13,093 nt of DNA, taken from positions 1-13,093 of the forward strand of contig CAZVGK010000052.1 in assembly GCA_964626665.1 (NCBI GenBank), in the 5' to 3' direction. The position numbers and the translations under genes are program-made. The notes under the pieces were generated by a model. It was not told the DNA's origin. It made no database searches and worked only from the letters and a program-made list of their open reading frames with translations. The stretch comes from an uncultured Gemmatimonadota bacterium. Lineage in GTDB: Bacteria > SM23-81 > DAOVCL01. Positions 1 through 13,093 of this stretch are shown piece by piece (position 1 is the first letter of the stretch; each line of letters starts with the position of its first letter).

Positions 1-300
1 AGTTCCTATCAGTTCCATTTGGTATCTTGCCACTGCCTTAGACCCCGTCGGGTTCTCGTAACCTCGCCACTCTCGGTTAAGAGAATACTGCCTGCTGCCA
101 AATGAAGGGCATCGGCCTCCAAGACGCTGGTTATTTCGGGGCTCAATACATTCACTCTCGTTGCGGCCCGATACCTCCCGCCTCCCAGCTTCACACAGCT
201 CGTTACCTCCCTGTGCGTGGGATTTGGTGCTGGGCTGGTGGCTAACCTTTGCCCAGACCAGACTTGCACTGGTAAGAACTAATAAGCTTCCTCGGCGCAC
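1..300 (-). mobile_element. Group II intron, 5' part (domain I; IIB-like bacterial class), truncated by window edge
   Basis: Minus strand starts at 300 with the consensus 5' boundary GTGCG(CCGAG). It carries domain-I-like motifs (AGTGCAAGTCTGGT, TTGAGCCCCGAAAT, GCCGA-TGCC-loop-GGCA-GCAGGC) and ends in GGAACT at the edge. Loop UCAUUU (105-100) pairs with the last 6 exon nt AGAUGG (306-301), as expected for EBS1/IBS1. RT ORF and domains V/VI are outside the window; subclass is from recall of motifs and is not certain. Confidence 0.88.
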
Positions 301-320
301 CCATCTTTCTTCCCTCCTCC
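301..320 (-). CDS. 5' exon stub of an intron-interrupted, cassette-like gene: RBS plus ATG-G
   Basis: Minus strand reads GGAGGAGGG (320-312)-AAGAAAG-ATG (304-302)-G, then the intron boundary. Product unknown because the 3' exon is outside the window. Confidence 0.6.
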
Positions 321-340
321 ATTTCTCAATAACCAATTTC

Positions 341-453
341 GCCTAACTCGTTTATATCCGCATTGCAGATATTCCTCCAATTTAGGGGTATATACGCAAT
401 GCATATATCCTTCCGATTTGGTGGTATATGCGCACTATTACAGATATACCACC
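341..453 (-). other. Putative attI-like recombination site with GTTRRRY core
   Basis: GTTAGGC at 347-341 (minus). It is preceded by roughly 18-bp periodic TATA/GATAT boxes, a perfect 10-bp inverted repeat GGTGGTATAT/ATATACCACC (420-429/444-453) and an imperfect IR centred on GCATTGC/GCAATGC (360-366/396-402). Lies directly 3' of the integrase stop. Confidence 0.62.
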
Positions 454-466
454 CTATGGATGAGTC

Positions 467-1558
467 TTATTTACCTCTTGGTGCACCACCTCCTTTCTCC
501 TTATTTTGAAATATCTCATCCAATGGGCTTCTTATCGCCATAAGAGCTTTGTTGGTTACATGAGTATAAATTTCTGTAGTCTTGCTGCTCTTGTGTCCTA
601 AAAGTTCCTGAATGTATCTTAAGTCTACCCCATTTTCTAAAAGATGAGTGGCAAAACTATGTCTTAAACTATGTATTCCAACATTCTTTCTTATATCCAC
701 TTTCTGTATGGCTTGCTCAAATATTGCTTGTGCTGTCCTTGTAGAAATGTAACCGCCAAGTTTTGCCCCAGGGAACAACCACCCTTTAGGTTGATACTTC
801 TTGCAATATTCTCTAAGAACCTGAAGAGCTTTCTCTGAAAGTATCGTATATCTGTCTTTTCTTCCCTTTGCTCCTTTGATATGGATCAACTTCCTCTTAC
901 TATCAATATCCTCGAGTTTTAATTTTACCACCTCACTTACTCGCAAGCCCGCAGAATATACCAGCATCAAGATTGCTTTATGTTTGAAGTTATCAACATT
1001 AGACAAGATTCTTGCTACTTCCTCCTTGCTCAACACCACAGGTAATTTCTTATCTTTGCGGGGACGCTTTATCTCATAAGTAAATTTCCTCTTGAGGATA
1101 GTGCTATAATAAAATTTCAAGGCATTAATGGCGGAGTTAAGTGTTGAAACGGCAACTCTCTTCTTTTCCACAAGGTGGAAAAGATAATCCTTAATGTCTC
1201 CTTCTGTAACATCCTCTGGCTTTTTGCCAGTGACATCTATAAAATTCGTGTTGTAATAAATATAGGCTTTGATTGTTCTTGGGCTGTATCTCCTTGATAC
1301 CATTTCTTTTCGTAAGTCCTTAAAGAAAGTCTTATCTCGTCTTAAAGCAGGATCAATCCAAACAGGATCATGCTTGAAAATATCAAGGAGCCTTTTTATT
1401 ATAACCTCAGAATGCGGGAAAATCCAGCACTTTCGTTTGGGATCCCACCTGTATCCCCTTATGCTCTTAACCTTTTCGATATAGATGAGATTATAGGGGA
1501 TAAAAACTGTAATTTTGTCCTCCTGCCCGATGGTTATTTTGATCTCGCTCTTTTTCAT
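467..1558 (-). CDS. Tyrosine recombinase, integron-integrase-like (N-terminal HARP-like extension + SAM-like domain + catalytic domain)
   Basis: Complete catalytic set: GLRVSE, KGRKDR, HSLRHSFATHLLE, LLGH, EIYTHV. Also IntI-like YSPRTIKAY, KLPVVLSKEEV and C-terminal SPLD. Visibly AT-richer than the housekeeping genes. Confidence 0.93.
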   Translation of the reverse strand: MKKSEIKITIGQEDKITVFIPYNLIYIEKVKSIRGYRWDPKRKCWIFPHSEVIIKRLLDIFKHDPVWIDPALRRDKTFFKDLRKEMVSRRYSPRTIKAYIYYNTNFIDVTGKKPEDVTEGDIKDYLFHLVEKKRVAVSTLNSAINALKFYYSTILKRKFTYEIKRPRKDKKLPVVLSKEEVARILSNVDNFKHKAILMLVYSAGLRVSEVVKLKLEDIDSKRKLIHIKGAKGRKDRYTILSEKALQVLREYCKKYQPKGWLFPGAKLGGYISTRTAQAIFEQAIQKVDIRKNVGIHSLRHSFATHLLENGVDLRYIQELLGHKSSKTTEIYTHVTNKALMAIRSPLDEIFQNKEKGGGAPRGK

Positions 1559-1579: not shown

Positions 1580-2140
1580 TTATTTCGCCCTTTCCCCTTT
1601 GTAATACCTATCCTTCTCGCTATAGATGCAGCCGCAATATTGCTGGCGGTAGAGGCCAAGCTCCTTGGAAACCTGTAGCCCCTCCTTCCATCCATTCCTC
1701 CAGTCCTCAAAGAGGAAGGGGACCTCATATTCGGAGGCCAACTGCTTGCCAATGTGACCCAGGGCCTCAAACTCCTGATGGTTGCTCTGCAGAAGGGTGG
1801 TGGTGAAGTAGTCAAACTTGCCCTTTTTAGCCACCTTTGCCGCCTCGGTAAGCCTCATTGCATAGCAGAACTGACACCTGTCGGCCTCCCTATAGACAAC
1901 CCTACGGAGGAACCCCTCCAGATCATAGTCGTTCTTATAGATCATCCGCAGCCCCTTCTTCTCTGAGAAGAGCTTTACCGAGTCAAGCCTTTTTTTGTAT
2001 TCCAGATAGGGGTGAATGTTGGGGTTATACCAGAAGCCGAAAAGATTTGCTCCCGCCTCGGTGAGTAGCTTAAATGGGTAGGCTGCGCAGGGGGCACAGC
2101 AGATGTGTAAGAGGACCTTTTGGGCAGATAGGTCTATCAT
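1580..2140 (-). CDS. queH: Epoxyqueuosine reductase QueH (DUF208)
   Basis: LLHICCAPC, YNPNIHP.EY.KR, RC.FCY.MRL, FTTTL and LYRQ.YCGC motifs. Confidence 0.92.
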   Translation of the reverse strand: MIDLSAQKVLLHICCAPCAAYPFKLLTEAGANLFGFWYNPNIHPYLEYKKRLDSVKLFSEKKGLRMIYKNDYDLEGFLRRVVYREADRCQFCYAMRLTEAAKVAKKGKFDYFTTTLLQSNHQEFEALGHIGKQLASEYEVPFLFEDWRNGWKEGLQVSKELGLYRQQYCGCIYSEKDRYYKGERAK

Positions 2141-12593: not shown

Positions 12594-13093
12594 TCATCGC
12601 AACAAAATCATCCTCTTGGTTGCCTCTTCCCCTTGGGCCTGGATGCGGCAGAAGTAGATACCTGAGGGAAGTCCTCTCGGCTTCCAGGACAAGGATTTGT
12701 AGCCAGCCCCTTGAAATCCATCGAAAAGCGTAGCCAACCTCTGCCCTAAAACATTGTAAATGGTCAACCTGACCAAGCCGGCCTGAGGCAGAAAATACCT
12801 TATCTTCGTTGACGAGTTAAAGGGATTAGGATAGTTGGGAAAGAGGAGCAATCTTTTAGGGAGATATTGAGAAAAAGTAAAATTCACTTCTATAGTTTCA
12901 CCGTTGAAGAGCTCAACCCAAAGGGTGTCAGAAGAAAAAGTATCTATCTGGGCGATAAGCATATAGGGGCCGGGGATGAGATCATCAAGTTGAAACTGTC
13001 CCTCGGAATTACTGTATGCAGAATACGGTTCAATACCATATACCCCCAGTTCCGGAAAAAAAATTGAAAGATTATGGTATATCAAGTAGTTAC
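12594..13093 (-). CDS. Secreted protein with T9SS type A-like C-terminal sorting domain, 5' partial
   Basis: NYPNPFN..T.I.Y.LP..G.V.L.IYNVLGQ...LPSG.YF......KRMILLR, preceded by a prealbumin/carboxypeptidase-regulatory-like segment (SNSEGQFQLDDLIPGPY). The frame stays open to the window edge. Confidence 0.88.
   Translation of the reverse strand, partial: NYLIYHNLSIFFPELGVYGIEPYSAYSNSEGQFQLDDLIPGPYMLIAQIDTFSSDTLWVELFNGETIEVNFTFSQYLPKRLLLFPNYPNPFNSSTKIRYFLPQAGLVRLTIYNVLGQRLATLFDGFQGAGYKSLSWKPRGLPSGIYFCRIQAQGEEATKRMILLR

Follow-up and report, generated by a model that had tools for sequence, protein, structure and literature searches.

Integron integrases are recognized operationally by the IntI patch, which defines them in IntegronFinder and in the TIGR02249 profile and which is also the accepted structural basis for recombination of folded, single-stranded attC sites. 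Integrons with an inverted integrase gene (Cury 2016; PMC4889954), archaeal integrons in which attI lies immediately downstream of intI (Ghaly 2022; PMC9668308), and co-oriented integrons of Treponema (PMC3607928) have been described. Here we analyze a tyrosine recombinase gene and the palindromic repeats behind it in an uncultured Gemmatimonadota bacterium, at positions 301 to 1558 of a stretch of 13,093 nt. The stretch, called the window, is the entire contig C52 of a genome, G000, that is 99.65% complete. We conclude that positions 301 to 1558 are probably the platform of a chromosomal integron of a noncanonical type, the integrase of which lacks the IntI patch and would nevertheless be active.

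The system resembles canonical integrons (classes 1 to 5 and the Vibrio superintegrons) in that its integrase belongs to the same recombinase superclade, its attC sites are RYYYAAC...GTTRRRY hairpins with a G↓TTRRRY crossover (the arrow marks the crossover), and its short cassettes are promoter-less, co-oriented, and carry toxin-antitoxin, restriction-modification, and acetyltransferase genes. It differs from them in that the window integrase lacks the patch of approximately 41 residues, carries an N-terminal HARP-like domain, and falls below the TIGR02249 cutoff. Moreover, the integrase gene is co-oriented with the cassettes, and the attI after its stop codon is built of tandem palindromic units. 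As in the inverted integrons of Treponema and the archaeal integrons, intI is transcribed toward the cassettes and attI lies directly downstream (PMC4889954, PMC9668308), but the integrases of those systems are reported to carry the additional domain of IntI (PMC9668308), which the window integrase does not. In the literature searched, which comprised text outside subscription journals and supplements, no description was found of integron integrases that lack the patch as a family, of a tyrosine recombinase bearing a HARP-like domain, or of an attI with this palindromic-unit architecture. The original prediction, made from the sequence alone, had treated the co-orientation as noncanonical; the arrangement is present, but it is not new (PMC4889954, PMC9668308). 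We conclude that the new part is the patch-less, HARP-bearing integrase and that co-orientation was already known.

The integrase gene and its domains are as follows.

467..1558, minus strand: integrase gene, 363 residues, a tyrosine recombinase of the IntI superclade without the IntI patch (open reading frame [ORF] with PF00589 and PF13495)
1343..1558, minus strand: N-terminal HARP-like domain, approximately residues 1 to 72 (weak Pfam HARP match and ESM Atlas structural matches)
1085..1324, minus strand: SAM-like core-binding domain, residues 79 to 158 (PF13495, Phage_int_SAM_4, E 7.6e-21)
551..1036, minus strand: catalytic domain, residues 175 to 336 (PF00589, Phage_integrase, E 1.1e-43)

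The catalytic residues R206, R299, and H322 and the tyrosine of the IYTH motif are present, and in an alignment of 34 homologous sequences (mean column identity, 54%) R299 and H322 are invariant and R206 nearly so. The motifs KLPVVLSKEEV and, in the tail, RSPLD were also found. Among NCBIfam profiles the protein ranked highest with NF040815, an XerA-type model named "site-specific tyrosine recombinase/integron integrase" (238.6 bits versus a cutoff of 220), followed by the integron integrase model TIGR02249 (230.6 bits, under its cutoff of 265), XerD (198.7 bits), and XerC (194 bits). The TIGR02249 match came in two stretches, model positions 2 to 179 and 237 to 314 only, with positions 180 to 236 unmatched. 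The best solved relative was Vibrio cholerae IntI4 (2a3v; 155 bits), to which query residues 78 to 251 and 277 to 347 align at positions 5 to 180 and 248 to 318, such that 25 query residues stand opposite 67; XerA (5hxy; 141 bits) aligned in one stretch. A canonical IntI from the same phylum, P0121, which has the LLPDALRRKYP sequence, is 32% identical to the window protein, and almost all of the 48 gap columns between the two fall at query residues 251 to 265. In a joint alignment, the distance from KDR to HxLRHS is 69 residues in the window protein versus 110 in canonical IntI (9/9). The spacing is 68 to 69 residues in all 24 proteins examined from two patch-less clades (the window protein, 12 database homologues, and 11 translations from attC-linked or module-linked loci), 69 in relatives linked to IS91 (7/7), and 70 to 78 in XerC/D-like proteins (5/5). 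The prediction had described an IntI-like recombinase, with a SAM-like domain and those two motifs, that lacked the patch and would be missed by IntI-specific profiles, and both claims held. We conclude that the absence of the IntI-specific patch (approximately 41 residues, the I2 helix region) is confirmed.

Residues 1 to 72 are conserved across the family (FPYNP..VEK.K.I.GHRWHPEEKYWSFP), and canonical IntI is without this domain. ESM Atlas searches indicated that these residues match the N termini of other recombinases structurally, as well as clusters of SNF2/SMARCAL1 helicases (TM 0.75 to 0.79), in one of which 66% of members carry PF07443 HARP. HARP domains of SMARCAL1 bind fork-like DNA.

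Downstream of the integrase stop codon, the same strand carries a repeat module, the start of a gene, and an intron.

425..460, minus strand: attI unit 1, nearest the integrase stop, a palindrome GGTGGTATAT...ATATACCACC with 10-nt arms that are 100% complementary
389..424, minus strand: attI unit 2, an extra unit in the C52 and C57 copies only (direct repeat family, module alignment)
353..388, minus strand: attI unit 3, crossover proximal, AATATCTGCA/TGCGGATAT and then AAACGAG (inverted repeat, module alignment)
341..347, minus strand (read 347..341): GTTAGGC core, with the presumed G↓TT crossover between 347 and 346
301..346, minus strand: 5′ end of the first cassette, with leader, ribosome binding site GGAGGAGG (320..313), and ATG (304..302)
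1..300, minus strand: 5′ part of a group II intron that runs off the contig end (Rfam RF02005, 33-266, 125 bits)

The three tandem units are 36 nt each, and each contains an inverted repeat of a TATATCCGCA-like half-site. The junction after unit 3 reads AAACGAG↓TTAGGC, and homology among copies of the module breaks off a few bases past GTTAGGCnAAAT, a sequence identical to the R′ side of attC sites. On sequence-level evidence, an attI with a G↓TTRRRY insertion point adjoins the integrase gene. A scan of the minus strand from 250 to 1700 detected no sigma-70-like promoter and no terminator, in an organism whose promoter type may differ. Palindromes on the integrase strand that end in GTTAGGC and are followed by a ribosome binding site and ATG without such a promoter were thus found where they had been predicted.

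The intron, which had also been named in the prediction, begins with GTGCG at position 300, 4 nt after the ATG of the first cassette, and the contig ends inside it, 346 nt past the crossover. Among Logan contigs from four salt-marsh runs, assembled in short pieces, those of X19 and X20 bridge positions 271 to 433 with zero differences; another version of the module, with 7 differences, leads into other sequence and fits the copy on contig C57. A second copy of the intron lies at a contig end (C40:22909-23169), is 97% identical, and follows a similar GGAGGAGG...ATG context; after approximately 270 nt it diverges into sequence like that of an inverted-repeat element on C24. The 3′ end of the intron was not found; the sole RF00029 match in the genome (C5:18860-18931) lies within another array. 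Group II introns in integrons have been described before (PMC7923331).

The 130-nt module occurs at five further loci of the same genome, C57:57-185 (93% identity) and one each on contigs C19, C25, C33, and C41, and these six loci are the only places genome-wide with clusters of at least three half-sites. Because the module recurs at five other loci, it is not a chance arrangement. In integrase orientation, all six read as the 3′ end of an upstream gene, CATAG, palindromic units, AAAYGAG↓TTAGGCnAAAT, and a different gene on the same strand. The upstream gene is the intact integrase on C52, an integrase remnant on C25, and, as read from translations at the remaining modules, ftsK, V-ATPase subunit B, a BatA-like gene, and an aconitase-like gene, such that one of the six modules adjoins an intact integrase and five do not. 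The first gene after the module encodes an N6_N4 DNA methylase on C41, a DUF3795 protein on C25, and an unassigned ORF of 338 residues on C33; on C57 it is a gene start cut by the contig end. On C19 (1502-4280), the first cassette is an interrupted SNF2-type helicase gene, after which comes an IS1634-like transposase ORF. Eleven modules from at least seven sources (the six G000 loci, the same-genus genome G002, WOR-3 UBA3073, a Thermodesulfobacteriota metagenome-assembled genome [MAG], and two metagenome contigs) were aligned and share the plan (GTATATCCGAAGT ACTTCGGATATAC)-CACCAAATTGGA-(GGATATCCGCA n TGCGGATAT)AAACGAG↓TTAGGC, with unit 1 kept in all 11.

Two of the modules head attC arrays. 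The integrase remnant and module of C25 precede the DUF3795 gene and two PIN genes, and three attC sites separate the ORFs, for example GCCTAAC-ACAGCATAAAAG...CTTTTATGCTG-GGAAC-GTTATCT. Behind the C33 module, co-oriented genes with several attC sites between them extend for more than 13 kb and encode MmeI-like restriction-modification, a radical-SAM protein, a methylase-SNase fusion, an MjaI endonuclease, a GNAT acetyltransferase, and a peptidase. The cargo of the two arrays (PIN, restriction-modification, GNAT, DUF3795) is typical of cassettes, and their attC sites are of the RYYYAAC...GTTRRRY type. The bottom strands of four attC sites fold with an R box of 4 to 6 bp, a one-sided bulge of 4 nt, and a stem of 11 to 12 bp (z of −2.6 to −3.8). 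Moreover, the TTAGGCGAAAT sequence just after the G↓TT of each module is the R′ side of attC sites, and the geometry of an arm, 5 to 7 nt, and G↓TT is common to the proximal attI unit and to the L′-R′ side of attC. As judged from its sequence, the module junction reads as an attI × attC junction should. Longer inverted-repeat sites, GATAAGCTAAAYG...CGTTGTTTAGCTTATC, lie between some cassettes (C33:16795-16634, C33:5115-4900, and C19:4380-4430) and could represent another type of attC or a separate mobile element. Hairpins of approximately 57 nt, TAAC...GTTTGAA, which emerged among the hits of an attC heuristic, form a separate repeat class (C5:12929, C14:46432, C21:18 and 46305, C46:11629, C57:2716, C8:92423, and C1:17839).

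The window integrase is the only intact member of its superclade in the genome. None of 22 matches to TIGR02249 in this nearly complete genome exceeded the cutoff for canonical IntI. Remnants of integron integrases, all of them C-terminal pieces, were noted at C5:14167-14650, C4:42326-42502, C28:42374-42508, C47:3254-3463, C59:361-591, and C2:187319-187528, the C5 piece spanning the patch region (TIGR02249 158-271). Each remnant is followed by another kind of attI-like site (TTATACGGAAACCATATAA...TAG↓TTAGGC) and by cassettes; at the sites behind canonical IntI pseudogenes, an arm is followed by approximately 7 to 10 nt before G↓TT. One possibility is that 3′ ends of integrase genes are kept as they may contain part of attI or the cassette promoter. 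An SSV-type model, in which an integrase is split by its own att site, was considered for C2, where a C-terminal fragment lies upstream of an N-terminal fragment. The model was abandoned, since the fragments derive from integrases of different types and have attI-like sites and cassettes behind them.

In the window, the minus strand from 12,088 to 1,580 carries ordinary core genes, including radical-SAM, endonuclease V, YbbR-like, tsaD, sugar-nucleotide, yebC, ruvC, ruvA, ruvB, and queH genes (named by reading translations, with only QueH confirmed by Pfam). The last of these lies directly before the integrase, its stop codon 21 nt upstream of the integrase start.

1580..2140, minus strand: queH, last core gene (PF02677, E 6.2e-63)

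Between queH and ruvB, at 2213-2258, lies a 45-nt palindromic element resembling repetitive extragenic palindromes (CTCCCCCATCAAGGGGGAGG core), with 45 further BLAST matches in the genome and a summed word depth of 340 to 670 in three of four runs. The right end of the contig, 13039-13093, is inside a gene for a protein with a type IX secretion system-type C-terminal domain; copies of this sequence are also found at the termini of contigs C38, C32, C18, and C55 and at the beginning of C22 of G002, and the assembly breaks there because it is multicopy.

In G002, QueH is 93% identical, and after its gene come an integrase remnant that is truncated at the 5′ end and interrupted by a stop codon, a module of two units, and a first gene that differs from the one in the window. 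Apart from this remnant, the best matches in the two same-genus genomes were Xer-like proteins of 36 to 39% identity, and no intact orthologue was present in either; the integrase gene is therefore accessory. The family is large, as 8,000 of 8,000 scored candidates had E of ≤0.001, and the best 120 homologues are 52 to 74% identical and come from sources named Acidobacteriota, Nitrospira, Thermodesulfobacteriota, Euryarchaeota, Micrarchaeota, and Thermoplasmatota. Relatives from other phyla (38 to 74% identity) are patch-less and repeat the order of integrase, palindromes, G↓TT, and cassettes. In WOR-3 UBA3073 (71%), the integrase gene is followed by a two-unit module ending in AAACGAG↓TTAGCC, an ORF of 285 residues, an attC, and core genes; in G008 (57%) by a palindrome, ACAAG↓TTGTGTG, an ORF, and an attC; in the Thermodesulfobacteriota MAG (59%) by a module and an antitoxin-like ORF; and in G034 (52%) by a palindrome and AAACG↓TTGTGTG. 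Among metagenome loci, L045 has a module, two ORFs, and an attC with a degenerate R′ after the integrase gene, L049 is an empty platform, and the first ORF of L050 reaches the contig end. Among 301 species genomes, 19 (G000 included) had a family match at E of ≤1e-70, and 18 such loci were read: 7 had a clear module, 4 had IS91-type genes, 4 had a motif like the GTT junction alone, 2 had nothing, and 1 had no integrase stop before the contig end.

A scan of metagenomes returned 598 pattern matches, of which 593 encode relatives; 80 loci were kept and, together with L041 and L042, made 82, from which 8 with too little downstream sequence and 8 linked to IS91 were set aside to leave 66. A 10-bp palindrome with at most two mismatches, ending 2 to 11 nt before GTT[AG] and no more than 200 nt past the integrase stop, was found in 32 of the 66. 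The same test was positive in 14 of 66 on the reverse strand, 10 of 66 within the gene, 3 of 59 upstream, 6 of 47 and 4 of 36 at more distal downstream positions, and 8.4% of shuffled sequences, and it misses cases recognized by eye, such as L048, L050, and L041. It replaced a generic test for an 8-bp palindrome and GTT, the background of which was 16% of shuffles and 24/74 on the reverse strand. attC-like sites, defined as AAC...GTT with an 11-nt L stem of at least nine pairs in the right register, numbered 22 in 150,788 nt downstream on the integrase strand, versus 3 in 150,788, 4 in 204,706, and 6 in 204,706 nt in controls, an enrichment of 5 to 7 times. attC sites were identified at the homologous loci L042, L011, and L045 and at ten further metagenome loci. 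An earlier heuristic (RYYYAAC/GTTRRRY plus duplex energy) was discarded as unspecific, since it gave 873 collapsed hits on all contigs and missed true sites, and a covariance model, R1, built on six short attC sites, was too narrow for counting.

The prediction of a gene-capture system agrees with modules that head attC arrays on C25 and C33 and that stand beside patch-less integrases elsewhere. Recurring att-like sites were sought downstream of modules and homologues and were found, and each homologous locus, the queH locus of G002 among them, has its own gene content beyond the GTT. The predicted "different site architecture" applies to the attI and to the enzyme, and not to the cassettes, the attC sites of which are of the ordinary type.

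Quick maximum-likelihood trees of 49 and 45 rows were built, the second without L042 (frameshifted) and without L079, L118, and C23 (long-branched or containing a stop). With an XerC/D-like outgroup, the window clade, a second patch-less clade, the IS91-linked relatives, and canonical IntI formed one superclade (SH-aLRT 100). Within it, four branches met in an unresolved polytomy: the IS91-linked (98), the second patch-less, attC-linked (98), the canonical IntI (100, stem length 2.0), and the window clade (96). The canonical IntI sample was narrow, all being at least 69% identical to one query, and XerA was not among the sequences. We conclude that the patch-less integrases are as close to IntI as anything sampled, and the tree gives no order of events.

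The IS91-linked relatives (38 to 50% identity) lie directly upstream of IS91-family transposases, at eight loci flagged by motif, and Y2_Tnp and Zn_Tnp_IS91 were detected in four of four such loci scanned. Like the window integrase, these recombinases, the "xerD"/TnpF genes beside ISCR2/ISVsa3 among them, belong to the superclade and are patch-less (7/7). They differ in that an IS91 transposase comes next, in that no more than 39 open codons precede the SAM-like domain (8/8), i.e., they are without the N-terminal domain, and in that they form a separate clade. Most relatives of the other kinds align from the N terminus or have at least 90 open codons there. No IS91-family transposase was seen in the window, where a module, a cassette start, and an intron lie downstream.

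We propose that integrase dimers would load on the palindromic units of double-stranded attI, which would then recombine at G↓TT with the folded attC of a circular cassette. Promoter-less cassettes would thereby be placed behind the integrase gene and might be expressed by read-through from queH and the integrase gene. The single intact integrase on C52 could serve the five orphan modules in trans, and the HARP-like domain may take over the role that the patch has in canonical IntI, namely, structure-specific recognition of DNA.

A number of observations weigh against a patch-less capture platform. The main obstacle is that the patch, or I2 helix, is reported to be necessary for recombination of single-stranded attC by IntI1 and VchIntIA (Messier and Roy 2001, via PMC9668308; eLife 2020). 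In addition, a survey of 18,808 recombinases without the patch located 50 of them close to attC sites, described four of the 50 as "intermediate between IntI and Xer," and concluded that such recombinases are not IntI (Cury 2016; PMC4889954); that survey covered the complete genomes of 2016, and the window family occurs mostly in uncultured lineages. No attC is visible in the window, which extends 346 nt past the crossover and ends in the intron, no sigma-70-like cassette promoter Pc was found in the minus-strand scan from 250 to 1700, and no joints of cassette excision or exchange were seen among the short Logan contigs of the four salt-marsh runs. Convincing attC sites, by heuristic and reading, were present in just 12 of 47 non-IS91 loci with at least 600 nt downstream, and model R1 gave 10 hits in the genome, its training sites and a few others, while missing known sites on C25, C33, and C13. 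The Pfam match to HARP is weak (E 0.0099, residues 17 to 48) and below the family cutoff. Finally, the genus and the genome also contain canonical IntI genes or pseudogenes, the products of which might have acted in trans.

That last point underlies one alternative, in which canonical, patch-bearing IntI inserted the cassettes in trans at a GTT that lies in the module by chance, and the patch-less recombinase serves resolution, inversion, or stabilization of the array. Canonical IntI pseudogenes with attI-like sites of their own are found on C5, C4, C28, C47, C59, and C2, a canonical fragment is present in the same-genus genome G001 and a full canonical IntI in G004 of the same phylum, and attC sites are shared among integrases (PMC2095811). 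The canonical remnants, however, have a different type of attI (TTATACGGAAACCATATAA...TAG↓TTAGGC), and it is established that an attI is recognized by its cognate integrase only (PMC2095811). Moreover, the order of integrase, module, and cassette repeats beside patch-less integrases in several phyla, and the palindrome sequence varies between relatives of the integrase. We consider insertion by canonical IntI in trans unlikely.

In another alternative, the integrase and module would be a small mobile or integrative unit, either Xer/dif-like or an IS91-type helper, and the palindromes, having no part in capture, would serve that unit as an att or resolution site. The protein passes the cutoff of the XerA-type model NF040815 (238.6 versus 220 bits), and it shares with archaeal XerA/dif and bacterial XerC/D a patch-less architecture of SAM-like and catalytic domains and ATAT-rich inverted-repeat sites. 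In addition, relatives of 38 to 50% identity stand directly upstream of IS91-family transposases, the two same-genus genomes have no intact orthologue, and the 52 to 74% identity of the best 120 homologues under bacterial and archaeal labels suggests mobility. Unlike XerA/dif and XerC/D, the window system has a site that is multicopy and located at cassette junctions, a gene that is not conserved in the genus, and an extra N-terminal domain, and the protein groups with IntI and away from the XerC/D-like outgroup in the tree. Six copies of the module, five of them without an integrase, are not a single dif, and the modules always lie exactly at the first-cassette junction, which resembles the R′ side of attC; the dif/Xer reading was rejected on this copy number and position. 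An IS91-type helper is opposed by the separate clade of the IS91-linked relatives, their lack of the N-terminal domain (8/8), and the absence of an IS91 transposase from the window. A mobile unit unrelated to capture thus seems improbable to us. A decaying, inactive relic of canonical IntI that lost its patch by deletion would fit the many integrase remnants in the genome and the intron in the first cassette, but it is very improbable given the intact ORF, the large and conserved patch-less family with catalytic residues kept (8,000 of 8,000 candidates at E of ≤0.001), the uniform spacing of 68 to 69 residues in 24 of 24 proteins, and the added, conserved N-terminal domain.

The noncanonical platform also bears on clusters of attC sites lacking integron integrases (CALINs). 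Like CALINs, five of the six G000 modules head or adjoin cassettes without an intact integrase, and a profile-based tool would class these five, and the window's own array, as CALINs. They differ from CALINs by the conserved attI-like module and by the intact related integrase on C52. We conclude from the module and that integrase that at least some "CALINs" are complete or once-complete platforms of a second type.

A search of plasmid proteins returned 742 records at E of ≤1e-30. The Chryseobacterium plasmid NZ_CP041688.1 (L148, 6965-10214) encodes a full-length member with the N-terminal domain (43% identity), annotated as "site-specific tyrosine recombinase/integron integrase," and downstream are a module (CATATAAACAAG↓TTGGG), an attC-like site without an ORF, and co-oriented small genes. 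A group II intron reverse transcriptase gene lies further on, and the host of this plasmid is a cultured organism. Many Acinetobacter plasmids encode a 5′-truncated member of 221 residues that is 57.5% identical to residues 117 to 347 of the window integrase. This gene is the xerD/delta-tnpF of the unit "ISCR2-xerD-tet(X3)-res-ISCR2" (10.1101/2021.08.02.454847). Unlike the IS91-associated kind, the "xerD" beside tet(X3) is a 5′-truncated copy followed by a palindrome and G↓TT module and then the tigecycline resistance gene. On the Acinetobacter indicus plasmid NZ_CP041297.1 (L149, 4043-6150), the truncated xerD is followed by the palindrome TATACGCCA-tt-TGGCGTATA, 7 nt, and G↓TTATGTGCCATTTT; the module reads as the palindrome and G↓TTATGTGCC, and tet(X3) starts 18 nt beyond the G↓TT, in the position of a first cassette. 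The junction sequence of this plasmid also follows other family members. After tet(X3) comes an imperfect attC-like inverted repeat, the R′ side of which lacks a clean GTT. A published report on this unit (10.1101/2021.08.02.454847) mentions neither attC nor integrons, and tet(X3) was not found described as a cassette in the literature searched. The sequence arrangement is consistent with an origin of tet(X3) as the first cassette of such a platform, with later uptake of the segment by ISCR2.

Taken together, these results raise a wider proposal, which we advance tentatively and as something short of probable. Cassette capture without the IntI patch would be the work of a second widespread, co-oriented integron lineage, with bacterial and archaeal labels, that uses an N-terminal HARP-like domain, one that binds DNA structures, instead; many CALINs would be complete integrons of this second type, patch-bearing IntI would be one branch of an older superclade, and the lineage would be the source platform of tet(X3). 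If a large family without the patch does stand systematically at the head of attC cassette arrays, the criteria by which integrons are detected would have to change, and some of the CALINs, the excess of which is puzzling, would be reclassified. Such a family would also allow a test, in nature, of whether structure-specific recognition can pass to another domain, and it would inform the question of how Xer-like ancestors gave rise to integron recombination. Finally, it could explain where the "xerD-tet(X3)" unit that is now spreading on Acinetobacter plasmids came from.

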